Positions 8,528 to 62,700 of a DNA stretch of 64,000 bases are shown piece by piece. Source of the DNA: Nitrospirota bacterium (GTDB lineage Bacteria > JACPQY01); the NCBI GenBank assembly GCA_016180645.1, contig JACPAV010000007.1:40888-104887 (forward strand), in the 5' to 3' direction. The notes beneath the pieces were generated by a model. It did no database searches and was not told where the DNA came from. It saw only the letters and a program-made list of their open reading frames with translations. A program made the position numbers and the translations under genes. The stretch's first letter is position 1; each line of letters starts with the position of its first letter.

Positions 8528-8609
8528 GAAATCGGAAATCGGCGAAATCAGGAAATCGGGGGACACCCTACCGATTCTTCCAATCGTGAAATCTGTAGGG
8601 TGTCCCCGG
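8528..8609. promoter_or_regulatory. divergent promoter region with a 4x tandem GAAATCG heptamer array followed by a 13-bp perfect inverted repeat (ggggacaccctac ... gtagggtgtcccc)
   Basis: Read directly: gaaatcg gaaatcg gcgaaatca ggaaatcg ggggacaccctac cgattcttccaatcgtgaaatct gtagggtgtcccc. Lies between the divergent carboxyltransferase and radical-SAM genes. Confidence 0.5.
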
Positions 8610-8693
8610 ATTCACGTAGAGATGGCTGCGACTCTGAAGCCGATCCATCTCCCATGGGGGCTTGAACCCCGCCGTGAGTTAGCATACATTAGT

Positions 8694-16470: not shown

Positions 16471-16986
16471 CTACCCACACCGATACGGTTTGATCTTTCC
16501 CTCTCGGTAGAGGTTTTCGATCCCCTCGATGGTCTGATCGGAGAGGGCCGACTCGGGCCGTTCGGCCACGATCTCACCGCCCTTTCCGGCGTGGGCGTCC
16601 TTTTTCTTCATCAAGAGCCAGTTCTTCTCCTGGTTCTTGAGTCTGAAGAGCCCGAACGCGCCCTTGAGCTTCTTGCCGTCCAACTCAAACTCCAATCGTC
16701 CCTTCTTCAAATCCGATCTCAAATCTGAAATCTGAGATTTGAAATTGACGATGCCCGTGTCCCACACGATCACCGGCCCGGCGCCGTACTGCCCTTCCTC
16801 GATCACGCCCTCGAATGTGGCGTAGTCCAGGTCATGATCGTCCACCTGCACGGCGAGCCGCTTCACGGCAGGATCGATCGAGGGCCCCTTGGGAATCGCC
16901 CACGACTTGAGGACGCCGTCGATTTCAAGCCGGAAGTCGTAGTGGAGAGTGGTGGCTTTATGCTTCTGAACGGTGAAGAGGGGCAA
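16471..16986 (-). CDS. stand-alone LigD 3'-phosphoesterase (PE) domain protein
   Basis: …FTVQKHKATTLHYDFRLEIDGVLKSWAIPKGPSIDP…VDDHDLDYATFEGVIEEGQYGAGPVIVWDTG… matches the LigD-PE signature. Confidence 0.8.
   Translation of the reverse strand: MPLFTVQKHKATTLHYDFRLEIDGVLKSWAIPKGPSIDPAVKRLAVQVDDHDLDYATFEGVIEEGQYGAGPVIVWDTGIVNFKSQISDLRSDLKKGRLEFELDGKKLKGAFGLFRLKNQEKNWLLMKKKDAHAGKGGEIVAERPESALSDQTIEGIENLYREGKIKPYRCG
16707..16748. repeat. heptamer-array repeat embedded in frame in the LigD-PE coding sequence (encodes …FKSQISDLRSDLK…)
   Basis: atttcaaatctcagatttcagatttgagatcgg on the coding strand matches the aaatctcaaatctcaaatctgaaatc core of the 4HB-associated repeats. It translates to the same KSQISxLxS peptide as in the 4HB gene. 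Confidence 0.6.
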
Positions 16987-16995
16987 GGAAAGGGA

Positions 16996-17673
16996 TCAGG
17001 CCTCCGCTCTCCGGGTCCCCCGACCGTTGAGCAGGTGCCGCTTGACCATGGCAACGGCCTCCGCGGGAGACTGCGCCAGATTCACCAGCCGGTAGTCGCC
17101 GTCCCGAATGAGGAGTTCTTCGCCGAAGACGGCAAAAACGCGGTTCCAGAAATCGCCGAGGAGGATGATGGGTTTCTTGACGATCCCTGCCTGGCGGAGC
17201 GACCAGATGAGTGTCAATTCCGTGAGCGTCCCTACGCCGCCACGAAGCACGACAAAGGCGTCCGCCATCGAAATGAATCGCTTGAGCCTCTTGTAGATCT
17301 CGGGATGGTGGAAGACCCTGTCCAGATAGCGGTTGGGCTTGTAGTCCTTGAACTCCTCTGTGGTGAGGCCGGCGGTGGGACCCCCGGCTTCCCTCGCGCC
17401 GCGCGAAACGGCTTCCATGCTGCCCTGGTAGCCTCCCGTGATGACTTGGAATCCGGCTTCAGCGAGCATCCGGCCCAGCGAGCGCGCATCGCGGTAGTTG
17501 GGATCGCCGTCGGACGTCAGAGAGCCGCAGAAAACAGCCACCGTCTTGATCTGACCTCCACGATGGGGGAAATGTCGCGGGAGGGCAGGAGCCCGGAGCG
17601 ACCGACCTCCACGATGGGGGAAATGTCGCGGGAGGGCAGGAGCCCGGAGCGACCGACCTCCATTTCGTTTCAT
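16996..17673 (-). CDS. LOG-family protein (cytokinin riboside 5'-monophosphate phosphoribohydrolase-like); N-terminus carries a tandem 17-aa duplication, true start uncertain
   Basis: …IKTVAVFCGS…; …PGGYGTLEE-like GGVGTLTELT…; …KPIILLG…. The N-terminal extension GGRSLRAPALPRHFPHR occurs twice. Confidence 0.75.
   Translation of the reverse strand: MKRNGGRSLRAPALPRHFPHRGGRSLRAPALPRHFPHRGGQIKTVAVFCGSLTSDGDPNYRDARSLGRMLAEAGFQVITGGYQGSMEAVSRGAREAGGPTAGLTTEEFKDYKPNRYLDRVFHHPEIYKRLKRFISMADAFVVLRGGVGTLTELTLIWSLRQAGIVKKPIILLGDFWNRVFAVFGEELLIRDGDYRLVNLAQSPAEAVAMVKRHLLNGRGTRRAEA
17555..17662. repeat. 51-bp perfect tandem duplication (2.1 copies), in frame at the 5' end of the LOG gene
   Basis: Unit cctccacgatgggggaaatgtcgcgggagggcaggagcccggagcgaccga repeats at 17555-17605 and 17606-17656, with a partial third start. 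Confidence 0.9.
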
Positions 17674-18836: not shown

Positions 18837-18864
18837 GTAGGGGCGAGGCATGCCTCGCCCCTAC
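18837..18864. repeat. 28-nt perfect palindrome gtaggggcgaggcatgcctcgcccctac (REP-like); second copy at 37722..37745
   Basis: Read directly; the two sites share 24 identical nt. The first is in a divergent intergenic region, the second immediately after the dnaK stop. Confidence 0.7.
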
Positions 18865-22414: not shown

Positions 22415-22450
22415 TTTGACATTTGAGATTTCAGATTTGAGATTCGGGAA
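22415..22450. repeat. heptamer-array repeat (atttgagatttcagatttgagatt), inverted copy flanking the 4HB gene on the left
   Basis: Its reverse complement aatctcaaatctgaaatctcaaat matches the arrays at 22722-22763, 22946-22977, 24705-24740 and 16707-16748. Confidence 0.8.
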
Positions 22451-22948
22451 ATGACGTACGAACGTTTTGAAGACTTGCCCGTGTGGAAGGCGGGGATGGA
22501 GCTCGCCGAGAAAGTGTATGCGCTCACGAAATCGCGGGAGTTTCGGCCCCAGCGATCGCTCCGAGACCAGATCGAACGGGCGGCCGTGTCGGTCTCCAAC
22601 AACATCGCCGAGGGCTTCGAGCGCGGAACAACCAACGAACTGCTCGCATTCCTCTACATTGCTCGCGGCTCAGCCGGCGAAGTCCGCTCCATGCTTCTTC
22701 TCCTGGACCGCCTTCCCGATTTCTTCAATTTGAAATCTCAAATCTCAAATCTGAAATCCCTGGCCGAATCCATCTCCTGCCAGCTTCGCGCTTGGGCCGA
22801 CTCCCTCCAGAATTCCCCCATCCAAGGCCAGCGCCACCTGACGGACAAAGTTCGGAAGCTTGAAGCTGAAAAGAAAGCCCGTAACGAGTTCATCCTCGAA
22901 ATCCACCGCATTTCCGGAAAGAAAATCCTGCGCGTGGACGAATCATGA
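22451..22948 (+). CDS. four-helix-bundle protein (23S rRNA intervening-sequence protein family, TIGR02436-like)
   Basis: …LPVWKAGMELAEKVYALTKS…QIERAAVSVSNNIAEGFERGTTNELLAFLYIARGSAGEVRSML… is the signature of this family. Confidence 0.8.
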   Translation: MTYERFEDLPVWKAGMELAEKVYALTKSREFRPQRSLRDQIERAAVSVSNNIAEGFERGTTNELLAFLYIARGSAGEVRSMLLLLDRLPDFFNLKSQISNLKSLAESISCQLRAWADSLQNSPIQGQRHLTDKVRKLEAEKKARNEFILEIHRISGKKILRVDES

Positions 22949-22977
22949 AATCTCCAATCTCAAATCTGAAATCGAAG
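22946..22977. repeat. heptamer-array repeat (gaaatctccaatctcaaatctgaaatc), right flank of the 4HB gene
   Basis: Direct-orientation copy; together with 22415-22450 it forms imperfect terminal inverted repeats around the 4HB ORF. Confidence 0.8.
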
Positions 22978-24704: not shown

Positions 24705-24740
24705 GATTTCACATTTGAAATCTCAAATCTCAAATTGCCG
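24705..24740. repeat. solo heptamer-array repeat (gatttcacatttgaaatctcaaatctcaaattg) between the SDR and AtuA-like genes
   Basis: Same aaatctcaaatct core as the 4HB-flanking repeats. Confidence 0.75.
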
Positions 24741-28448: not shown

Positions 28449-29560
28449 GCATGGAATCGATTGGAACACCCGTCTTTTGGGTCGGATTCACAATCTCTGT
28501 TCTGGTCCTGTTGATTCTGGACCTCGGCGTCTTTCATCGAAAGGCCCACGCGGTCGGTTTTCGCGAGGCCCTGGTGTGGAGCGTCGCCTGGATTTCTCTC
28601 GCCCTGCTTTTTAACGGATGGGTCTATCACGGGTTCGGATCGGAGAAGGGGCTGGAGTTTCTCACGGGTTATCTCATCGAACTCTCGCTCTCCGTGGACA
28701 ATCTTTTCGTTTTTCTCGTGATCTTCTCGTACTTTTCCGTTCCGGTCTCGTTGCAGCACCGGGTCCTCTTCTGGGGCATCCTGGGGGCGGTGGTGACGCG
28801 GGCGACGTTTATCTTCGCCGGAACGGCCCTCATCCAGTCCTTCCACGCGGTGATCTACGTGTTCGGGGCCTTGCTTATGTTTACGGGCGTCAAGCTATTG
28901 GCACAACAGGAGCACGAGGTTCACCCGGAACGCAATCCGGTCCTGCGCCTTTTTCGCCGATGGGTTCCGTTCGTCGAAAACTACCACGGGGCGAAGTTCG
29001 TCGTGTCGGAATCGGGCCGCCGCTTCGCCACCCCTCTCCTGGCGGTCCTCGTCGTCGTGGAGGCGACGGACGTGTTCTTCGCGGTGGACTCGATTCCCGC
29101 GATCTTCGCCATCACGACGGACCCGTTCATCGTGTATACGTCCAACATCTTCGCCATCCTCGGCCTTCGGTCCCTCTTTTTCCTCTTGGCGGGCATGATG
29201 GGAAAATTCAGATACCTCCGGGTGGGGCTGGCCCTTGTCCTCACGTTTGTCGGATGCAAAATGGTGCTTCAGGAAGTTTACAAACTCCCCATCACGATCT
29301 CCCTTGCCGTTGTCGCAACGCTCCTGGCGGGTTCGGTCGCGGCCTCCCTTCTCCGTCCTCCCCCCGTTCCCGTCCGGGAGCCGTTGCGAGACCGTTCTCG
29401 CGAAGATTCTCTCTCGGCGTCGCCGGATTCCAAGGAGCGATCGGAGGCGACGCAACAACCCCATGACAAAACCTTTCGTCGTCCCGGTGCCGATCCTCAT
29501 ACCCTCCCGACCACCGTCCCCGGAGGGGGCCGAAGCGGAGCGAAGGGGGCGGCTCCATGA
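28445..29560 (+). CDS. TerC/Alx-family integral membrane protein with disordered P/R/S-rich C-terminal tail
   Basis: Multiple TM helices; …YLIELSLSVDNLFVFLVIFSYF… and …FAVDSIPAIFAIT… TerC motifs. Confidence 0.8.
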   Translation: MSMESIGTPVFWVGFTISVLVLLILDLGVFHRKAHAVGFREALVWSVAWISLALLFNGWVYHGFGSEKGLEFLTGYLIELSLSVDNLFVFLVIFSYFSVPVSLQHRVLFWGILGAVVTRATFIFAGTALIQSFHAVIYVFGALLMFTGVKLLAQQEHEVHPERNPVLRLFRRWVPFVENYHGAKFVVSESGRRFATPLLAVLVVVEATDVFFAVDSIPAIFAITTDPFIVYTSNIFAILGLRSLFFLLAGMMGKFRYLRVGLALVLTFVGCKMVLQEVYKLPITISLAVVATLLAGSVAASLLRPPPVPVREPLRDRSREDSLSASPDSKERSEATQQPHDKTFRRPGADPHTLPTTVPGGGRSGAKGAAP

Positions 29561-33399: not shown

Positions 33400-35673
33400 A
33401 AAGGGCCTGTCGAACCACGGGCCGATGCCTGCTTCATCTCTCTGGGACTACTTGCCGCTCTCCTTCTTTCCGCCTGCTACACGGACAAACCCCAGTACGT
33501 GGGTGGGTTCCGGGTGCAGCAATCGGGAAACCGTTTCACTCTATCCGGACCGGACGGCCGGAAACTCCTGGTGGATGCCTCGGCCCAAGTAGGCCAATTC
33601 ACCTTCCAACCCTGCTATCCGGACCCTCTCGGCCTGTCGTGCGGGAGTGGACAGGACATTCTCGGATGGGTGAGGATCGCTCGGGACTGGTCCGATTGGG
33701 CCGGTGAAGGAAGCGGCGGCGCAAGTTCTGATGACGGTACGGATCGCCGTCCCCGGAGCGGAGCGGAGCGGGGGGCCAAAGTCGATTTCATCGAGGAAGG
33801 GAAAGGCGTGATCCGAATCCACATCGAGAGCGCGGACGGGCGGGACAATGGAGGATTTCTCTCGTTCGACTGCGACTCCCGCGATGCCTTTCTGGGCTTG
33901 GGCGAACGGTTCGACGGCGTCAACCAACGCGGGCGGATCGTTCCGACCATCGTGGAAGAGGGTGGCGTCATCTACTCCGGAAACGACCGGCCCAAACCGC
34001 ATCTGGCCACGTACTATCCCGTGCCGTTCTATCTGAGCCCCCGCGGCTATGGGCTTTGGGTGGACGTCTCCGAGCCGACGTACTTCGATCTCTGCTCTTC
34101 CGATCCCAAACGCGTCTCCATCGAGGTTCTAAAACAACCTTTCGACGTGTGGATCTTTTCGGACAAAGACCCTCTGAAGATCATTTCCCTCTTCACCGAG
34201 CGCACGGGACGCCCAAAACTCTCGCCGCCGTGGGCCTTCGCGCCGTGGAACGATTCCGTGGCGTGCAGTTTCATCTCCTCCGAGACCAACTACGGCGAAA
34301 CCTGCGATATCGCCAAGGAGCCAGGCCTCGGTGAACGAAAAGTCCGCGCGTTGGCAAAAGAGCTCAAGGAGAAAGAGGTCCCCACGTCCGTCATCTTCTC
34401 CGAAGATTGGATCGGCGCCGAGCCGGCAAGCCCCTTCGGCTACACGATTGTCGCCGACGCCACGATCGATCGCGGGCTCTACCCGAACATCGAGTCGCTG
34501 GCCCAAGATCTCCACGCGCAGGGGATACGGTTCCTAGTGTACTACTTCCCCTACCTGATCGAAGAATTGGACGAGAACGGCGAACCCCGCAAGGGCAGCG
34601 ACTACGCCGAGGCACTCTCGAAGGGATACGCCCTCAAGGATGCCGCTGGGAAGCCCTACAATTTTCTCATGATCACGCGCCGTGTCGCTCAGGTCGATTT
34701 CACGAATCCGGCCGCACGGAAGTGGTACAAGGGCATCCTGCGCCGCGCGATCGACCTCGGCGCGGACGGCTGGATGGCCGATTTCGGTGAATACACGCCG
34801 CTGGACGCGGTGGCGTACGACGGCACCAGCGGCCTCGCCCTCCGAAACGCGTTCCCCGTCCAGTGGCACAAGATCAATCGCGAAGTGTGGGACGAAGCGA
34901 GACCCAACGGCGACTACGTCTTCTTCACCCGCTCCGGATACACCGGCACCCAGCAGTACTCGCCCGTTTCCTGGCCGGGAGACCAGAACACCGATTGGAG
35001 CCTGCTGGACGGCCTTCCCTCCATTCTTCCCTCCGCGCTCGCCCTGGGCATTTCGGGTCAACCCATTTTTGGGCACGACATCGCGGGCTACACCACCATT
35101 CCCGGCGCGAAGAACACCGACAAGGAATTGTTCATGCGGTGGACGGAACTGGGCGCCTTCTCGCCCATCATGAAAACCCACCACGGAAACGAGGCCGGCC
35201 AGAATTGGACGTTCGATCGGGACGACGAAACGCTGGCCCATTTCAAGCTCCATGCCGAGGTCCACACCGCGCTCTTCCCGTATCTCTACGGCCTGGCCCA
35301 GGAGGCATCGGACACGGGCCATCCCCTCATGCGTCATCTCTACCTCCAATACCCGGAGGATGCCGAAGCGTCCTCCATCGAAGATGAGTATCTCCTGGGC
35401 CCGGATCTCCTGGTCGCGCCGGTAGTGACACCAAGTACGTCATCACGCACAGTCTACTTTCCGAAAGGGCGATGGATCGATTTCTGGAGACTCTACTTTG
35501 GCAATCCGGAGCCGGAGGCGTACGGGGGTCCCGGCCGCCATGATGTTCGCGCATCGCGTATCCCGGTCTTCGTGCGCGCCGGGGCCTCGATCCCTGTGCT
35601 CGACCCGGTGCCCCTGACTCTCGACGGCATAGATCTGGACAATCTCAGCTTGAGAACCATCGAGGCCCAGTAG
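33400..35673 (+). CDS. glycoside hydrolase family 31 (alpha-glucosidase-like) lipoprotein; start unresolved (no canonical start before the signal peptide)
   Basis: …ISLGLLAALLLSACYTD… lipobox; GH31 catalytic-region motifs …WMADFGEY… and …GHDIAGY…. Confidence 0.75.
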   Translation, partial: KGPVEPRADACFISLGLLAALLLSACYTDKPQYVGGFRVQQSGNRFTLSGPDGRKLLVDASAQVGQFTFQPCYPDPLGLSCGSGQDILGWVRIARDWSDWAGEGSGGASSDDGTDRRPRSGAERGAKVDFIEEGKGVIRIHIESADGRDNGGFLSFDCDSRDAFLGLGERFDGVNQRGRIVPTIVEEGGVIYSGNDRPKPHLATYYPVPFYLSPRGYGLWVDVSEPTYFDLCSSDPKRVSIEVLKQPFDVWIFSDKDPLKIISLFTERTGRPKLSPPWAFAPWNDSVACSFISSETNYGETCDIAKEPGLGERKVRALAKELKEKEVPTSVIFSEDWIGAEPASPFGYTIVADATIDRGLYPNIESLAQDLHAQGIRFLVYYFPYLIEELDENGEPRKGSDYAEALSKGYALKDAAGKPYNFLMITRRVAQVDFTNPAARKWYKGILRRAIDLGADGWMADFGEYTPLDAVAYDGTSGLALRNAFPVQWHKINREVWDEARPNGDYVFFTRSGYTGTQQYSPVSWPGDQNTDWSLLDGLPSILPSALALGISGQPIFGHDIAGYTTIPGAKNTDKELFMRWTELGAFSPIMKTHHGNEAGQNWTFDRDDETLAHFKLHAEVHTALFPYLYGLAQEASDTGHPLMRHLYLQYPEDAEASSIEDEYLLGPDLLVAPVVTPSTSSRTVYFPKGRWIDFWRLYFGNPEPEAYGGPGRHDVRASRIPVFVRAGASIPVLDPVPLTLDGIDLDNLSLRTIEAQ

Positions 35674-35820: not shown

Positions 35821-37725
35821 ATGGCGCAGGCACAAGCGAAAATTATCGGCATCGATTTGGGCACCACCAACAGCGTGGTGGCCATCATGGAGGGCGGCGA
35901 ACCCCTGGTGATTGCCAACGAAGAGGGAAGCCGGCTGACTCCCTCCGTTGTCGGATTCGGCAAAGACGGAGAAGTCATGGTGGGCCAGATCGCCAAGCGC
36001 CAGTCCGTGACCAATCCCGAGAATACCGTCTACTCGATCAAACGCTTCATGGGTCGGCGATACGAGGAAGTCAATGAAGAGATGAAGATGGTTCCGTATC
36101 GCGTGCTCAAGGAAGGGGACATCGTGAAAGTGGACGTCAGCGGCAAGAAATACTCGCCGCCGGAAATCTCGGCGCACGTTCTGATGAAGCTCAAGCGGGC
36201 GGCGGAGAACCATCTCGGCCATCCGGTGACCGATGCCGTTGTCACCGTCCCCGCTTATTTCAACGATGCGCAGCGAAAGGCGACGCAGGACGCGGGCAAG
36301 ATCGCGGGACTGAATGTGCGCCGGATCATCAACGAGCCGACGGCCGCTGCGCTGGCCTATGGCCTGGACAAGAAGAAGGATCAACTCATTGCGGTGTACG
36401 ATTTCGGCGGCGGCACGTTCGACATCTCGATCCTCGAAGTGGGCGACAACGTGGTGGAAGTGAAGGCCACCAACGGCGATACCCACCTGGGTGGCGACAA
36501 CATCGACCAGCGGATCATTGAGTGGCAAATCGCGGAGTTCAAGAAAGAATCCGGGATCGACCTTTCAAAGGATCGCATGGCGCTCCAGCGGCTGCGCGAA
36601 GCCGCCGAGAAGGCCAAGATCGAGCTCTCCAGCGTCAAGGAAACGGAAATCAATCTCCCCTTCGTCACGGCGGACGCGAACGGGCCGAAACATCTCTTCT
36701 TGAAACTGACGAGGGCCAAGCTTGAAAGCCTCGTCGGCGACCTCGTCGAGCGAAGCCTCGGCCCCCTCAAGCAGGCGCTCAAGGATGCCGGCGTGAAACC
36801 GTCCGACGTTCACGAGGTCGTCATGGTGGGCGGCCAGACCCGCATGCCGAAAATCCAGGAGGTGGTGAAGGAGTTCTTCGGGCGCGAACCTCACAAGGGC
36901 GTGAACCCGGATGAAGTCGTGGCCGTGGGCGCGGCGGTTCAGGGCGGCGTTCTCCGCGGCGAGGTGAAGGATATCCTCCTGCTGGACGTGACTCCGCTCT
37001 CGCTCGGTGTCGAAACGCTCGGCGGCGTGATGACCACGCTGATCCAACGGAACACGACCATCCCGACGCGAAAGAGCGAAGTCTTCACCACGGCGGCCGA
37101 CAGCCAGACGTCCGTTGAGGTCCACGTCCTCCAGGGCGAACGCCCGATGGCGAAGGACAACCGGACGCTCGGCCGGTTCCATCTCGTGGGCCTGCCTCCC
37201 GCACCCCGCGGCGTTCCGCAAGTGGAGGTGACGTTCGACATCGATGCCAATGGCGTCATCAACGCCTCCGCCATCGACAAGGCCACGGGCAAGGAGCAAA
37301 AAATCACCATCACGTCATCGAGCGGTCTCAGCGAAAAGGATGTGGAGAAGATGGTGAAGGAGGCGGAATCGTTCCGCGAAGAGGACGCCCAGCGGCGCGA
37401 GGTGGTGGATGCGCGGAATCAGCTCGATTCCCTCGTCTACTCCACCGAGAAGCTCCTGAACGACAACAAGGACAAGATTCCCGAAAAGGAAGCCAAGGCT
37501 ATCGAGGAGGCCCTCAAGGAAGCAAGGGAAGCGTCGACCGGCGAAGACTTGAAAGCGGTCAAGAAGGCCACGGAGCAACTGACTCAGGCCACACACAAGC
37601 TCTCCGAAGTCCTGTACAAGCAGGCGTCCGGCCCCACCGGCGCGCCGGAGGCGGAAAAAGGCAACGGCGCCGGCAAGGCCGAGGAGGCGGAGGTCGTGGA
37701 CGCGGAAGTCGAGGATTCGAAGTAG
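35821..37725 (+). CDS. dnaK: molecular chaperone DnaK (Hsp70)
   Basis: …[14 protein letters not shown]…; …DLGGGTFD…; full-length Hsp70 colinearity. Confidence 0.97.
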
Positions 37726-37809
37726 GGGCGAGGCATGCCTCGCCCGAGCCAAGGCGGCGGCTAGTGCGGTCGTCTTTACACGGGCCGCCTCCGTCTCTAC
37801 ATTAGGAGC

Positions 37810-38760
37810 ATGGGCAAGGACTACTACAAGACCCTGGGCGTCTCGCACAACGCGTCGACGGACGATCTGAAGAAAGCCTACAAGCGGCTGGCGAAGAAGT
37901 ATCACCCCGACTTGAATCCGGGCGATAGATCGGCCGAATCGAAGTTCAAGGACATCAGTGAGGCGTACGCCGTTCTGGGGAACGCGGAGAAACGCCGCCA
38001 GTACGATCACGTCGGCCCGTCCGGCTTTCATTTCGATCCGCGCGAGTACCGGACAACGGGGGGCGGCGTTCAATTCGATCTCGGCGGGTTCGATCTCGGC
38101 GACTTGTTCGACGGTATCTTCGGCGGGCGCGGCGGGCGGGGTCGCGGCGGCAGCGCGGATCCCCGTGACGGATCCTTCCGCCGTCCGCGGAGCGGAGCGG
38201 AGTGGGGCGGGTTTGGTCAGCAACAGATGCCGCACGGCGGCGATCTGGAATATACGCTGGAGCTTGAATTCGATCAGGCCATCGAAGGCTACACCGCGGG
38301 CATCAACGTGAACGGTGAGATCATCAAGGTCAAGATCCCTGCAGGAGTGGACAACGGGTCCAGGGTCCGGGTTCGTCAAAAGGGAGCCGTCAGCCCGTTC
38401 GGCGGGCCTCGGGGCGATCTCTATATCCGGGTGCTGGTCCGCCCTCACCCCCTGTTCGAGCGAAAAGGAAAAGATTTGCACGTGGAATTGCCCGTGACGT
38501 TTCCGGAGGCTGCCCTGGGCGCCACGGTGGAGGTGCCTTCATTGCACGACCGGACGAAAATCAAGATTCCGCCCGGCACGTCGAGCGGCAAGGTCTTCCG
38601 GATCTCCGGGAAGGGCGTGCGGGTGACCAATGGTGACGGTCCGGGCGACCTGTATGTCAAAGTGAAAATCGTGGTTCCGAAGGATCTGAAAGGCCGGGCG
38701 AAAGACCTCGTGGAGCAGCTCGGAGAGGAGCTTTCCGAAAATCCCAGATCGAGTTTCTAA
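37810..38760 (+). CDS. DnaJ-class co-chaperone lacking the zinc-finger domain (CbpA-like)
   Basis: J-domain …YYKTLGVSHNASTDDLKKAYKRLAKKYHPDLNPGD…; G-rich linker; C-terminal substrate-binding domains; no CxxCxGxG repeats. Confidence 0.85.
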   Translation: MGKDYYKTLGVSHNASTDDLKKAYKRLAKKYHPDLNPGDRSAESKFKDISEAYAVLGNAEKRRQYDHVGPSGFHFDPREYRTTGGGVQFDLGGFDLGDLFDGIFGGRGGRGRGGSADPRDGSFRRPRSGAEWGGFGQQQMPHGGDLEYTLELEFDQAIEGYTAGINVNGEIIKVKIPAGVDNGSRVRVRQKGAVSPFGGPRGDLYIRVLVRPHPLFERKGKDLHVELPVTFPEAALGATVEVPSLHDRTKIKIPPGTSSGKVFRISGKGVRVTNGDGPGDLYVKVKIVVPKDLKGRAKDLVEQLGEELSENPRSSF

Positions 38761-38858
38761 GTGCGTCTAACAGAATGCGTAGGGGAGGGTCTTCAGACCC
38801 TCCCGACAAGAGGGAGCATCTGAAGATGCTCCCCTACGAATCGGCATTCTGTTAGAGG
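38761..38858. repeat. nested-hairpin repeat element, copy 1 (shares the gtgcgtctaacagaatgcgtaggggag … ctcccctacgaatcggcattctgtta architecture)
   Basis: Contains inner palindromes gggtcttcagaccc and gggagcatctgaagatgctccc inside an outer ~19-bp stem; near-identical copy at 39859-39952. Confidence 0.85.
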
Positions 38859-38943
38859 TCTGTTAGAGGCTCTAAGAATGATAATCTGGTGCAGAGCCTT
38901 CAGGCTCTGCCAGTAAAGTGCGCAAGGACTCTTGCGAGCATAG

Positions 38944-39804
38944 TTGGATGGAGGTGATGACATGAACAATCTTCGAACCGTTTTCCTGCTCGGAACACTC
39001 ACCGCGCTCCTGCTCTTCGCGGGCGGCATGATGGGTGGTCAGCAAGGACTCACCATGGCCCTCTTCATGGCGGGCCTAATGAACTTCATCGCGTACTTCT
39101 GGTCTCACAAGATCGTCCTGGCCATGTATGGGGCAAAGGAAGTGTCGGAAGCCGAAGCGCCCGATCTGCACCGAATCGTCAACGAGCTCGCGATGCGCGC
39201 GGGAATTCCGAAACCGCGCGTGTTCATCATGCCGTCCGAGGCCCCCAACGCGTTCGCCACGGGACGCAATCCTCAGCACGGCGTCGTCGCGGTCACCCAA
39301 GGCACCCTCAAGCTCCTCAGCCGGAACGAACTCGAAGGGGTTCTGGCCCATGAAATGGGACACATCAAGAACCGCGACATCCTTATTGCGACGATGGCGG
39401 CCACGATTGCGGGCGCTATCGGTTACCTCGCGCACATGGCGCAGTTCGCGGCCATCTTCGGCGGCGGGCGGAGCGACGACGACGATCGAGGCGGAGCCGG
39501 TTCACTGATCTTCATGGCCATTCTCATTCCAATCATCGCGATGCTGATTCAGATGGCCGTTTCGCGCTCGCGCGAATACGTGGCGGACGAAACGGGAGCG
39601 CGCCTGGCCGGAAATCCCTTCGGATTGGCCGATGCCCTTCAGAAATTGCAGGCCTACTCTCAGAGAATCCCGATGGGCGCGAATCCCGGCACGGCGCACC
39701 TGTTCATTGTGAGCCCCCTGAGCGGCCGGGGCGTCATCCAACTCCTCAGCACCCACCCGCCCATCGAAGAACGCATCGCCCGCCTCCGCTCGATGACGTT
39801 CTGA
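38944..39804 (+). CDS. htpX: zinc metalloprotease HtpX
   Basis: TM helices, …HEMGHIKNRD… (HExxH), …LLSTHPPIEERIARL… C-terminus. Confidence 0.9.
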   Translation: MDGGDDMNNLRTVFLLGTLTALLLFAGGMMGGQQGLTMALFMAGLMNFIAYFWSHKIVLAMYGAKEVSEAEAPDLHRIVNELAMRAGIPKPRVFIMPSEAPNAFATGRNPQHGVVAVTQGTLKLLSRNELEGVLAHEMGHIKNRDILIATMAATIAGAIGYLAHMAQFAAIFGGGRSDDDDRGGAGSLIFMAILIPIIAMLIQMAVSRSREYVADETGARLAGNPFGLADALQKLQAYSQRIPMGANPGTAHLFIVSPLSGRGVIQLLSTHPPIEERIARLRSMTF

Positions 39805-39818
39805 AAGTACCGAATTGT

Positions 39819-39848
39819 CACACAGAGGCTAAACCTCGACAGTTACTA
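39819..39848 (+). terminator. hairpin aaacctcga-cagttacta-tcgaggttt after htpX (terminator-like)
   Basis: 9-bp perfect stem read directly, followed by a short T-containing tract. Confidence 0.35.
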
Positions 39849-39858
39849 TCGAGGTTTA

Positions 39859-39952
39859 GTGCGTCTAACAGAATGCGTAAGGGAGGGTCTTCAGACCCTC
39901 CCGACTAGAGGGAGCATCTGAAGATGCTCCCCTACGAATCGGCATTCTGTAA
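39859..39952. repeat. nested-hairpin repeat element, copy 2
   Basis: gtgcgtctaacagaatgcgtaagggagggtcttcagaccctcccgactagagggagcatctgaagatgctcccctacgaatcggcattctgtaatgg; ~95% identical to copy 1. Confidence 0.85.
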
Positions 39953-39973
39953 TGGGCCCTTAGCCTCGAAGTC

Positions 39974-41284
39974 TTGGAGGTGAAGATGCTGCGGCTTGGA
40001 GTCACTTCGCTGAGTGTCCTGCTTCTGTTCTCCTGCGATCAATCCAAACCGAAGCAGTCGTACCCCACTCCCATCGAGCACGTTATTTTCATCAGCAAGG
40101 AGAATCGGACGTTCGACACATATTTCGGGGCCTATTCGTCTCCCTCCGGTGATCACGTGGAAGGAACCACAAAAGGAAAGCTGGGATCCACCGTAATCGA
40201 CCTTCCGAGAGGGCAGGACGTCGGGCCCTACGTCATGCACGAGCACTCGAACGCCCTTCTTTCATGGAACGGCGGCGCGATGGATGGGTTCTACCTGACT
40301 CCCCGTTTGTACGGACCCCCCACCCAAGAGGAGAAATTGGAATCCTACGTGCAGTACCTGAGGGACGATATCCCGAACTATTGGGCGCTCGCCGACCGCT
40401 TCGCGCTGGCCGATCATTACTTTACGTCCGTCATGACCTCGACCTTCCCGAATCGGCTCCATTCCGTGGCCGCGCAGGCGGCCGGGATGTATCAACTGCC
40501 GATCTCCAAGCCGTGGAGTTGCCAAATCAAATACGCCGCCGCGCCGGTCTTTAAGGAAGACTGCTCCACAGACATGGTTGTCCCCTGTTTCGACATCCCG
40601 ACCATTTTCGACCTCGTGGAGGCGAAGGGGCTGACCTGGAAGATGTACATTTCGCCCAGGGATGGAGGCGGCAATTTCAATGCGCTCTACTCCATCCGCC
40701 GCTACTATGAAAAAGTTCAATCGGACCCCGCCTATGCCGACAAGTTCTTTCCACCTGTCAGCCAATTGGCGGAAGACGCGAGGCGGGACCGGCTGCCCAA
40801 CGTGGCCTTCGTGATCTACCCGATGGAACTCAGCGAGCACGCTCCGGAAGGACCGGTCTGTTGCGGCGAAGAGGCCACCACAAGAGACATCTGGGCCCTC
40901 ATGGAGAGCCCGGCGTGGAAACGGAGCCTCATCATCCTGACGTGGAACGACTACGGCGGCTACCACGACCACGTGCCGCCGCCCGAGCCGCACGCGTGCC
41001 CTTCGGGCGAGGGGCACTACGAGCCCGGCTTCAGAGTGCCCGCAATCTTTGTTTCCCCATACGTCAGGCGAGGGTCGGTCGTTTCAACGGTGCTTCAACA
41101 CGGATCGGTCCTGCGTGGAATCGAGGACATCTTCTCGCTCGGAATGACGCTCCACGACCTGGACCCGCGGGCCAACGATCACACGATGAATTCCATCGCC
41201 GAAGTTCTGAATTTCGCCTCCCCCGATTTCACCGTCCCCCCTCGCACCGCCCGCTCCTGCCCAAACGCCTGCCTCGCAGATTAG
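39974..41284 (+). CDS. phosphoesterase-family lipoprotein (phospholipase C / AcpA acid-phosphatase-like)
   Basis: Lipobox …VLLLFSCDQ…; …IEHVIFISKENRTFDTYFG… phosphoesterase family signature. Confidence 0.75.
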   Translation: MEVKMLRLGVTSLSVLLLFSCDQSKPKQSYPTPIEHVIFISKENRTFDTYFGAYSSPSGDHVEGTTKGKLGSTVIDLPRGQDVGPYVMHEHSNALLSWNGGAMDGFYLTPRLYGPPTQEEKLESYVQYLRDDIPNYWALADRFALADHYFTSVMTSTFPNRLHSVAAQAAGMYQLPISKPWSCQIKYAAAPVFKEDCSTDMVVPCFDIPTIFDLVEAKGLTWKMYISPRDGGGNFNALYSIRRYYEKVQSDPAYADKFFPPVSQLAEDARRDRLPNVAFVIYPMELSEHAPEGPVCCGEEATTRDIWALMESPAWKRSLIILTWNDYGGYHDHVPPPEPHACPSGEGHYEPGFRVPAIFVSPYVRRGSVVSTVLQHGSVLRGIEDIFSLGMTLHDLDPRANDHTMNSIAEVLNFASPDFTVPPRTARSCPNACLAD

Positions 41285-41511
41285 GGATTGCGAGAAAACA
41301 AAGTTCACATGTTGGGCCGGCATCCGGCCTTCCCAGCCGCCTGGGCGGAGCGGGCAGCCGCCCCCTACGAAGGATCTCCTATCTTGGTAGGGGAGCAGCT
41401 TTAGCTGCTCCCTTTTCTCTTGGGAGGACCCAAAGGTCCTCCCCTACGCGATCGGCCTTGGCCGCGCTCTTCGCGCGATTGAGCAGCTAGTTTCCTCGCA
41501 ATCCCCTAGCT
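41281..41511. mobile_element. MITE-like element bounded by 11/12-bp inverted repeats (agggattgcgag … ctcgcaatccc) containing a third, diverged nested-hairpin repeat (41345-41470)
   Basis: Terminal inverted repeats read directly. Inner hairpins gggagcagctttagctgctccc and gaggacccaaaggtcctc show compensatory changes relative to copies 1 and 2. Confidence 0.5.
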
Positions 41512-41920
41512 GCATTTGGCCACGCCCCGCCTGCGCCGGACGACCTACACCGATCCGCATTGACCCTTCCCGGCAGTGGGTGATAAAGTGGGGGCTGTGG
41601 GAAAGTCGCTTTCGGCCGGGCGTGATGCCGGCCGCACTCTCGGCCTTCCTGGCGGACAGGATGTCAGCGATGGTGGGGAGAGTGCGTTATCGAATCGATA
41701 TCTAAAGCACGCGGAGCAACTGCATGCGAACTTCTATGAAGATTTCTTGAAAGTCCGGGAGCTCCGGCTACAGGCCGAAGACCTCAAGACGCTCGTACTG
41801 AAACTCCGATCCCTTTTGAATCAGAACGGCGCCCGTTAGCTCCCTTCAACGAAAAACATCCGAACCGATAGGACCCTGAAATGTCGGCAACGACGCATCA
41901 GAGGCCAACGCGACGGAAGC

Positions 41921-42254
41921 CAATTGACACGGAATCAGCCACCGGTAGAATTCGACGCATGGCTCCCATGACGATTCATTTCGCGGCGCAAAGGCCGAAC
42001 CACTGTTCTACTCGCCGTCCCCGAAGCCTGGCGAAGGGGGTCGCCCCCGGAGCGAAGCGAATGGGGTCGTTTGTCAGGCATGGACACCGCAACGGGGGCA
42101 AAACGGGGAATCAAATCGAAAATATCGGCTGAGATCGCTGACATGATAGTAGGCATCCGGCCTGCCCGCGCCCTTGGCAGGCGGGCAAAACCGCCCGAAC
42201 ACAATCCCGATACAAGAATATCAGGGCAAAATGCCAAGCTAATCAATGGTTAGG
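41921..42254. repeat. direct repeat A (~334 bp): consensus sigma70 promoter TTGACA-16-TAGAAT at 41924..41951 followed by a long conserved leader; partner copy at 45572..45846
   Basis: Two long blocks nearly identical between copies; copy A carries a ~60-bp internal insertion. Ends ~8 nt before the ATG at 42262. Confidence 0.85.
41924..41951 (+). promoter_or_regulatory. consensus sigma70-type promoter (TTGACA, 16-nt spacer, TAGAAT)
   Basis: Both hexamers match consensus, 6/6 and 5/6. Confidence 0.6.
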
Positions 42255-45472: not shown

Positions 45473-45571
45473 CTCGCAGCAGAATCGGAGTGGGCACCCC
45501 CGGGGTGCCTAGCAACCGGTTGCGCGGATGGTCCGCTGCGCGGCCCGCCGGGTAGAGGAACCTCAGAGAGT

Positions 45572-45846
45572 CAATTGACACGGAATCAGCCTCCGGTAGA
45601 ATCCGACGCATGGCTCCCATGACGATTCATTTCGTCGTCCCCGGAGCGAAGCGAATGGGGCGCTTGTCAGGCATGGACACCGCAACGGGGGCAATACGGG
45701 AATCAAATCGAAAATATCGGTCGAGATCGCTGACATGATAATAGGCATCCGGCCTGCCCGCGCCCTTGGCAGGCGGGCAAAACTGCCCGAAAGCAGTCCC
45801 GATATCGCCTTGTCAGGGCAAAATGGCAAGTTAATCAATGGTTAGG
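45572..45846. repeat. direct repeat B (~275 bp) with consensus sigma70 promoter at 45575..45602
   Basis: Matches 41921..42254 apart from the insertion in copy A. Confidence 0.85.
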
Positions 45847-62504: not shown

Positions 62505-62574
62505 TAGTTCCTGATCTCCCGCCTGAATTCCAGGAGGGCGCGGATCGTAGGGGAGCCCTTTATCGGCTCCCGAT

Positions 62575-62700
62575 CACGGGCCATGTTCTTAGCGGCCCAT
62601 CTTGGGCCGCAACCTTGCATGGCCCCGTGCCGTCCTGGGCACGGGGAGGGGATGAACCCCTCCCCTACGGGCGAACCCCAATCAGGGAAACAGGGCGGGA
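62575..62700. repeat. nested-hairpin repeat element, diverged copy 4 (contains ggggaggggatgaacccctcccctacgggcgaa, then gggaaacag x3)
   Basis: Shares the …ctcccctacg(N6)… motif of copies 1-3 plus several additional perfect hairpins (gggccatg…catggccc; ccgtgcc…ggcacgg). Confidence 0.5.

Follow-up and report, generated by a model that had tools for sequence, protein, structure and literature searches.

GTAG-headed hairpin repeats around htpX in a groundwater Nitrospirae genome are probably REPIN-like doublets

Repetitive extragenic palindromes (REPs) have been given an operational definition, namely the tetranucleotide GTAG or GTGG placed 0-2 nt 5' of a basal stem in which all 7-20 nt are paired and the loop has 2-5 nt (PMC6006769). 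As set out in part of the survey by Di Nocera, De Gregorio & Rocco (2013, PMC3733652), members of the GTAG-tagged REP superfamily, which includes the SMAG repeats of Stenotrophomonas maltophilia, share a 5' GTAG that is unpaired and directly precedes a stem of 6-13 bp with a short loop. In the REPs and bacterial interspersed mosaic elements of E. coli the GTAG head and hairpin are recognised as single-stranded DNA (ssDNA) by TnpA-REP (RayT, b0228), as described in sections of PMC3479197 and PMC8266576. We have analysed here a 64-kb stretch of a groundwater Nitrospirae genome (contig JACPAV010000007.1, hereafter the window) in which a family of short hairpin repeats surrounds the heat-shock gene cluster dnaK-dnaJ-htpX. 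We conclude, with a probability of about 0.75, that these repeats are GTAG-type REP doublets similar to REPINs (REP doublets forming hairpins), moved in trans by a REP-associated tyrosine transposase (RAYT) encoded elsewhere in the genome. Their GTAG-hairpin anatomy fits published REPs, in line with the REP-like nature that had been proposed in the initial annotation.

The informative module of these repeats is a unit of 24-26 nt, not the ~100-nt block. Each unit consists of GTAG abutting a perfect 7-9 bp G-rich hairpin whose stem opens with GGG and closes with CCC. Ten window units carry GTAG at distance 0 from a perfect stem of this length and an eleventh is headed by GTAA; the loops are 4 nt long, except in the copy-4 units, where they are 5 and 7 nt. 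Nine of the eleven conform to the REP definition of PMC6006769, the exceptions being unit 4a (7-nt loop) and unit 2a (GTAA head). The window contains six repeat loci with 11-12 units, each locus being intergenic or at a stop codon. Four doublets are present, in each of which two units are inverted with their GTAG heads outside and with arms that differ by compensated stem changes. The doublet spacers are 7, 7, 9 and 72 nt, and the arrangement of two inverted REPs with a short spacer is that of a REPIN.

Copies 1 and 2 bracket htpX, as previously noted, but are 98% identical over 93 nt (2 mismatches; 38760-38852 against 39858-39950 by repeat finder) rather than ~95%. Copy 1 reads, in order, CTAACAGAATGC / GTAG GGGAGGGTC ttca GACCCTCCC / gacaaga / GGGAGCATC tgaa GATGCTCCC CTAC / gaatcg GCATTCTGTTAG, and a weaker extension of its outer inverted repeat pairs 38744-38774 with 38859-38889. 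Copy 2 lies 54 nt past the htpX stop codon and 36 nt ahead of the phosphoesterase start codon. The copy 3 doublet (41387-41447) has the same layout with other stems, CAGC/GCTG being combined with GACC/GGTC. A fourth member exists, as had been claimed, although at 62547-62668 and not 62575-62700. Situated downstream of a glycine-cleavage T-like gene region, it again has the same layout, with stems CC/GG and GGG/CCC, and its spacer forms hairpins of its own (GGGCCAUG...CAUGGCCC around GCGGCCCA..UGGGCCGC, then GUGCC..GGCAC). The GTAGGGG head is also found, as reported initially, in the palindrome at 18837-18864, which lies in the 104 nt that separate divergently oriented genes for an amidohydrolase and an acyl-CoA dehydrogenase, and in the single unit at 37722-37745.

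Statistical support for the unit comes from several directions. The exact 9-mer GTAGGGGAG occurs seven times, always within doublets, where ~0.5 occurrences would be expected in 128 kb (both strands), and allowing one mismatch gives 23 matches compared with 10.6 +/- 3.3 in shuffles. A covariance model of the unit finds 8 doublet arms (E 6e-12 to 4e-6) and the single units (E 0.015), with nothing else convincing in the window beyond the sites given in Table 1. The window units have seven different stem sequences, each perfectly paired, and the RNA folds of the copies have z scores of -6.0 to -9.7 relative to dinucleotide shuffles. A permissive scan for GTAG next to any hairpin yields 17 sites against 6-20 in shuffles, which is no excess; only the GTAG plus GGG...CCC class is informative.

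The same grammar recurs far outside this genome. Our doublet pattern, GTAGGGGAG-N12-CTCCC-N5..30-GGGAG-N12-CTCCCCTAC, has 28 fixed bases, which are those of the heads and of five basal stem pairs, and so essentially no chance matches are expected. Its matches in GTDB species genomes amount to at least 120 loci, spread over six or more phyla. Among the matches listed, to which the remainder of this paragraph refers, the hosts are many Ruminococcus, Acutalibacteraceae and other Clostridia, together with Bacteroidetes, Blastocatellia/Acidobacteria, a complete Armatimonadetes chromosome, metagenome-assembled genomes (MAGs) of Thermomicrobiales, Anaerolineae and Chloroflexia, and a groundwater Nitrospirae MAG (L095). 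Genomes often contain several doublet loci, and many loci have extra units or clusters. Copies are numerous in the Armatimonadetes chromosome (OY970325.1) and in Ruminococcus flavefaciens isolates (FD-1, YAD2003, MA2007, Y1). Unlike arms, that is heterodimers, are found in 91 of 104 distinct doublets. The doublets avoid coding sequence, with 34% in stop-to-stop open reading frames (ORFs) of at least 120 aa although such ORFs span 89% of the loci, and the flanking genes are mostly convergent or co-directional. Covariation was measured at the three stem pairs left free by the pattern. Formal pair counting used the equal-length family set because MAFFT misplaced gaps in the window units, which are of unequal length. 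The free pairs are 91.5% Watson-Crick, compared with 51.5% in shuffles (maximum 64%), and double-sided changes number 63 cells against 14.4 +/- 3.0 in shuffles (0/500 reached 63), with slid controls giving no more than 23. The view that the repeats form a single family, conserved in architecture and with compensation of the changes in their stems, is upheld. At pair 8, T:G outnumbers A:C by 9 to 0 on the GTAG strand. This excess shows only that folding matters on that strand, which fits either ssDNA or RNA.

Evidence for mobility comes from two comparisons. A ~100-nt element that is nearly identical to copy 1, including the outer repeat, is present in inverted orientation in the other Nitrospirae MAG (L095), where the gene neighbourhood is unrelated to the htpX locus. 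Its occurrence there could stem from close relatedness or from transfer. In the closest relative compared (Logan contig L123; HtpX 74% identical, same dnaK-dnaJ-htpX order) the dnaJ-htpX gap is 20 nt, and there is no unit after dnaK, dnaJ or htpX. The gaps of 201 nt and 181 nt that flank htpX in the window are therefore insertions into an ancestrally compact cluster. The element is thus found at different loci and is present or absent between relatives, as expected of a mobile sequence, and htpX itself did not arrive between the repeats. The final residues of DnaK and DnaJ are unlike those of the L123 relative, with the Pfam domains complete, and thus the extreme C-termini of these proteins may have been rewritten by the insertions.

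The most likely mechanism is that the units are non-autonomous mobile elements which are copied by a single-copy HUH/Y1 transposase of the RAYT/TnpA-REP type encoded elsewhere in the genome. The hairpin signal of each unit would consist of GTAG, the GGGAG...CTCCC stem base, 3-4 variable paired positions and a short loop, and the RAYT would recognise the GTAG head and hairpin on ssDNA. The need for an ssDNA hairpin would keep the units foldable while the middle of the stem drifts, leading to compensated changes, and unlike arms would avoid a long perfect palindrome. Where they are transcribed, at the 3' ends of dnaK, dnaJ, htpX and the phosphoesterase gene, the hairpins may have a secondary function as attenuators or as barriers at mRNA 3' ends. 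We infer that this genome encodes a RAYT by which the units are moved. By analogy with described REPs, a barrier or attenuator role in the dnaK-dnaJ-htpX-phosphoesterase transcript(s) would be reasonable.

A number of observations weigh against this interpretation. A search for RAYT or IS200-like transposases had been recommended at the outset and was the right lead, but no RAYT or any HUH/Y1 ORF was found in the 64-kb window or in the ~0.8 Mb of the 120 doublet-bearing loci using phmmer with E. coli RayT, a regular expression for the HUH...Y motif, and a hidden Markov model (HMM) of 109 diverse RayT relatives (--max, E <= 100). The relatives used for that model share at least 41% identity with E. 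coli RayT, and distant groups may escape it. As a positive control we used 80 metagenome loci picked solely for encoding a RayT relative, and a GGGAG-type stem is present in none of these (0/80). An exact scan of JGI metagenomes with the copy-1 core gave 0 matches, and the six loci seen in this genome all come from the 64-kb window. Many of the covariation cells are inherited and not independent, and several of the pair-8 T:G cases are related sequences.

The lack of a RAYT near the doublets is nonetheless unsurprising for a single-copy gene. A homologue search with E. coli RayT returned Enterobacteriaceae only, among the matches listed. In about half of the control loci the RAYT gene is flanked by GTAG-headed hairpins of 7-10 bp (for example GTAG.GGTGCGC, GTAG.GGCGGGAT, and mixed or alternating GGTGCGC/GGTGGGC arrays), and since these share the head and the geometry of our units, the unit geometry is that of genuine RAYT substrates. 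The 17-21 bacterial classes with reported RAYT groups include Clostridia and Caldilineae (PMC5581495), which makes a RAYT partner in the phyla concerned plausible. The only aspects that are mildly unexpected are that one GGGAG stem base comes back in six or more phyla and that unlike arms are so strongly preferred. The GTAG-GGGAG...CTCCC doublets could be one cross-phylum lineage in which the arms are almost always kept different and whose partner is not canonically RayT-like, none having turned up in ~0.86 Mb around the 120 or more copies, or whose stem base is kept for a host RNA or translation function and not for transposition, a proposal that we regard as decidedly unlikely. The conserved stem base reads as a Shine-Dalgarno sequence (GGAGG) paired to an anti-Shine-Dalgarno sequence (CCUCC).

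The initial annotation took the preservation of structure over sequence as a sign of selection at the RNA level. This does not follow, as recognition of an ssDNA hairpin by a RAYT explains compensation equally well; since sub-families with complementary stem changes, and heterodimers, are already described for GTAG REPs in part of PMC3733652, compensation is not by itself evidence for an RNA function, and nothing in the present sequence data separates RNA recognition from ssDNA recognition. It is unlikely that the repeats are primarily structured RNA elements, be they 3'-end stabilisers, attenuators or terminators between heat-shock genes or small RNAs, whose hairpins are maintained because selection acts on the transcript and which owe their spread to duplication or recombination and not to a dedicated transposase. 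Such an origin would suit the position of all the window units, which follow co-directional genes at their 3' ends or lie in intergenic gaps, the very stable folds of the copies, the preponderance of T:G over A:C pairs on the GTAG strand, and the argument made in part of PMC3733652 that REPs are in many cases transcribed and function as RNA. It leaves the GTAG head, invariant and unpaired, and the mirror-image CTAC without a role in a terminator or stabiliser hairpin, and the symmetric doublets hold no strand information relative to transcription. One unit, at 18837, lies between divergent genes. The element also occurs at an unrelated locus of a second genome, and in a relative the orthologous operon lacks it. 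The terminator function that had been suggested is not borne out, as the units as a class do not combine a GC-rich hairpin with a following U-tract: the region has 4 terminator-like sites against 4.2 in shuffles, the sole unit among them being 3a, the first copy-3 hairpin (41389-41414), which is trailed by the T-rich tract TTTTCTCTT, whereas copies 1, 2 and 4 have no T-tract. Rfam 15 gave 0 matches at gathering thresholds across the whole window and 0 matches even at E <= 1 within 37600-41700. An RNA role is plausible as a secondary, exapted function and weak as the sole explanation.

Copy 3 lies in a composite region that was initially described as a miniature inverted-repeat transposable element (MITE)-like element. 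The inverted repeat is real, comprising 24 nt at 83% complementarity (41276-41299 / 41490-41513) around 190 nt, and the 18-nt core TAGGGATTGCGAGRAAAC occurs twice where chance would give 0.13. As a whole, the 238-nt region forms a single long stem around the modules. MITE status is unproven, as this terminal repeat has no further occurrence in the window or in the 203 loci searched, and a long palindrome colonised by REPs could fit the region equally well; REP dimers nested in longer palindromes are described for other GTAG families in part of PMC3733652. The outer inverted repeats, the persistence of a 13-nt outer repeat around the element in the second Nitrospirae MAG, and the MITE-like element size of 100-240 nt might nevertheless suggest that the family consists of classical MITEs bounded by terminal inverted repeats (TIRs), deletion derivatives of DDE-transposase insertion sequences (ISs) that move by cut-and-paste and in which CTAACAGAATGC and TAGGGATTGCGAG are the transposase sites and the inner hairpins are passengers. 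We consider this highly unlikely. The outer repeats are wholly different among copies 1/2, 3 and 4, whereas the GTAG hairpin grammar is common to all, and no outer repeat accompanies the single units at 18837 and 37722. The outer-stem changes in the second MAG are uncompensated, and no direct target-site duplication is evident at the element edges. Terminal repeats common to many copies and accompanied by target-site duplications are thus not seen. No recurrent transposase of any kind lies near the 120 doublet loci: all-against-all ORF clustering of these loci yields housekeeping families only (ABC transporters, epimerase, DegV, SpoVT etc.). Still less credible is the notion that the units are operator palindromes for a heat-shock regulator, which would account for their clustering in dnaK-dnaJ-htpX, with 4 of the 6 window loci within the 4 kb from dnaK to the gene after htpX. 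The units are positioned after genes and not at promoters, and other copies adjoin the amidohydrolase/acyl-CoA dehydrogenase pair and the glycine-cleavage T-like gene region. The context in the second MAG is unrelated to the heat-shock cluster, the heat-shock cluster of the L123 relative has no units, and in other phyla the same grammar is found near genes such as those for ABC transporters, epimerases and DegV. The operator reading is effectively refuted by this distribution.

Table 1. Coordinates of the repeat units, the composite elements and the neighbouring genes within the window
Feature	Position	Strand	Support
Single hairpin, stem as in the 37722 unit, GTAG head on both strands (GTAG...CTAC)	18837-18864	.	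inverted-repeat search
GH31 hydrolase gene	upstream of dnaK	+	Pfam
dnaK	35821-37725	+	Pfam
Single REP unit GTAG GGGCGAGG catg CCTCGCCC	37722-37745	+	13.4 bits, E 0.015
dnaJ/cbpA-like gene	37810-38760	+	Pfam
Copy 1, ~103-nt REPIN-like element	38756-38858	.	block common to L095; fold -69.8 kcal/mol, z -9.7
Copy 1 outer inverted repeat, 12 nt	left CTAACAGAATGC 38767-38778, right GCATTCTGTTAG 38844-38855	+	repeat search
REP unit 1a GTAG GGGAGGGTC ttca GACCCTCCC	38779-38804	+	covariance model 36.2 bits, E 5e-11
REP unit 1b GTAG GGGAGCATC ttca GATGCTCCC (minus-strand reading)	38812-38837	-	32.7 bits, E 1e-9
htpX	38962-39804	+	PF01435
Copy 2	39858-39950	.	98% identical to copy 1; fold z -6.2
REP unit 2a, mutated head GTAA, GGGAGGGTC ttca GACCCTCCC	39877-39902	+	27.4 bits
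REP unit 2b, identical to unit 1b	39910-39935	-	pattern and covariance model
Phosphoesterase gene	39986-41284	+	PF04185
Composite region with copy 3	41276-41513	.	inverted-repeat search; fold z -6.0
Degenerate third unit near copy 3, GTAG GGGGCGG ctgc CCGCTCC, 7 bp including one G:T	41347-41368	-	10.9 bits, E 0.12, weak
REP unit 3a GTAG GGGAGCAGC ttta GCTGCTCCC	41387-41412	+	34.2 bits
REP unit 3b GTAG GGGAGGACC tttg GGTCCTCCC	41422-41447	-	38.7 bits
REP unit 4a GTAG GGGAGCC ctttatc GGCTCCC	62547-62571	+	23 bits
Doublet 4 spacer, 72 nt, self-folding	62572-62643	.	fold -86 kcal/mol, z -6.2
REP unit 4b GTAG GGGAGGGG ttcat CCCCTCCC	62644-62668	-	31 bits

The HtpX protein encoded in the window is 100% identical to a protein of an NCBI 'Nitrospirae bacterium' MAG. 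Three stop codons in the cluster lie at or inside repeat edges: that of dnaK (37723-37725) is the TAG in the GTAG head of unit 37722-37745, that of the dnaJ-like gene (38758-38760) is overlapped by the left edge of copy 1, and that of the phosphoesterase gene (41282-41284) forms the opening 3 nt of the TAGGGATTGCGAG arm at the start of the copy-3 inverted repeat. A 1052-nt Logan contig from SRR12113425 (L001) with an identical htpX matches window positions 38859-39898 at 100% identity. It begins just past the right end of copy 1 and stops inside copy 2, an assembly break at the repeats. Head-less hairpins adjoin doublets at 38893-38912 and 39828-39858. One of these, GCAGAGCC ttca GGCTCTGC, has the TTCA loop of units 1a/1b and could be a head-less, base-compensated relative; the other, CTAAACCTCGA-9-TCGAGGTTTAG, stands directly 5' of copy 2. 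A further unit candidate at 34522-34554 on the minus strand, inside the GH31 gene (E 0.012), has a poor hairpin on reading and was put down to chance.

In one Clostridia MAG, DOME_MAG_3300, the doublet at nine loci is embedded in a longer repeat, its flanks being identical on either side and contig ends being a frequent location, and so here the doublet also travels inside a larger non-coding repeat. A 3.8-kb contig between two direct copies of this repeat carries housekeeping genes only, and the repeat-bounded contig L050 encodes a HAD hydrolase, an ABC transporter and a sigma factor, with no transposase.

The window contains other repeats. At 8554-8612 there is a 23-nt inverted repeat (AATCGGGGGACACCCTACCGATT / AATCTGTAGGGTGTCCCCGGATT) with its arms 13 nt apart, in which GTAG is inside the stem and which is preceded by a GAAATCG heptad run. 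Its GGGGACAC sequence fits the GGGGWSAS motif of the terminal repeats flanking 'TIRYT' tyrosine-transposase genes described in part of PMC3733652, and the RayT HMM search found no transposase ORF nearby. An A/T-rich repeat of 7-nt period, (GAAATCT/CAAATCT)n, partly palindromic and apparently intergenic, is found at 16712-16739, 22417-22444, 22717-22758, 22946-22973 and 24709-24736, and similar sequence follows htpX in the L123 relative (2290-2337); it could be a protein-binding array. Positions 17553-17654 are a perfect tandem duplication of 2 x 51 nt (100% identical). A repeat of ~340 nt, 87-95% identical between 41918-42254 and 45569-45846, opens with TTGACA-16-TAGAAT (at 41924), the best match to a sigma-70 site in the region, and from its sequence looks like the duplicated promoter and leader of paralogous genes. 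It contains CCCCGGAGCGAAGCGAATGGGG, a motif with weaker copies at 29498, 33731 and 38165, of which the latter two are inside coding sequence and may be chance.

The repeats account for the inflated and highly structured intergenic regions of the dnaK-dnaJ-htpX cluster and for the breaks in short-read contigs there. They extend GTAG-REP/REPIN-type elements to a groundwater Nitrospirae lineage, and point to a family with GGGAG stems, most of its doublets heterodimers, that is met again in six or more phyla. The finding alone opens no new question. If a cognate RAYT is found, the system would provide a convenient case in which to examine how variable mid-stems are tolerated or used by a single-strand transposase and why unlike arms are preferred.

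Compared with known systems, these elements resemble TIR-type MITEs in being small, non-coding, highly structured and intergenic with terminal inverted repeats, but differ in that the internal GTAG hairpin and not the termini is conserved, that no parent IS was found, and that no target-site duplications were seen. E. coli REPs have no sequence similarity to the window units, and E. coli RayT has no homologue in the window. The shared features are the GTAG head with its hairpin and the alternating orientation; according to sections of PMC3479197 and PMC8266576, secondary roles known for REPs include mRNA stabilisation and protein binding. As stated in part of PMC3733652, the two units of an E. 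coli dimer differ in loop length, whereas the window doublets differ in their stems. The REPIN-RAYT system (Bertels & Rainey 2011, PMC3116915; RAREFAN, 10.1101/2022.05.22.493013) includes by formal definition a cognate RAYT, as a rule present in one copy and with these REPs on its flanks, and none was found in the window or the 120 loci. REPINs are in other respects similar, being composed of two inverted REPs with a short spacer that form a hairpin-capable element of ~60-100 nt, and being chromosomal, extragenic and multi-copy; IMG/VR viral contigs contain 0 doublets and only 3 RAYT relatives. With regard to the superfamily of PMC3733652, the loops here are longer, at 4 nt (5 and 7 in copy 4), than the 2-3 bp given there for many families. 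The GGGAG...CTCCC stem base was not found in the text or the supplements searched of that paper, which numbers 24 families, and Nitrospirae and Firmicutes are unmentioned in its main text. A literature search for the literal repeat sequence gave unrelated primer and oligonucleotide matches only. The correspondence with the REPs described in the relevant parts of PMC3733652 is otherwise extensive. These likewise occur as singletons and as dimers, with a preference for the HH arrangement (GTAG outside); they include heterodimers with different stems, sub-families with complementary stem changes, occasional G:T pairs and dimers nested in longer palindromes; and they lie mostly downstream of genes, between co-directional or convergent ORFs. 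The repeats of the htpX region belong to this known class of small bacterial repeats and are ordinary members of it.

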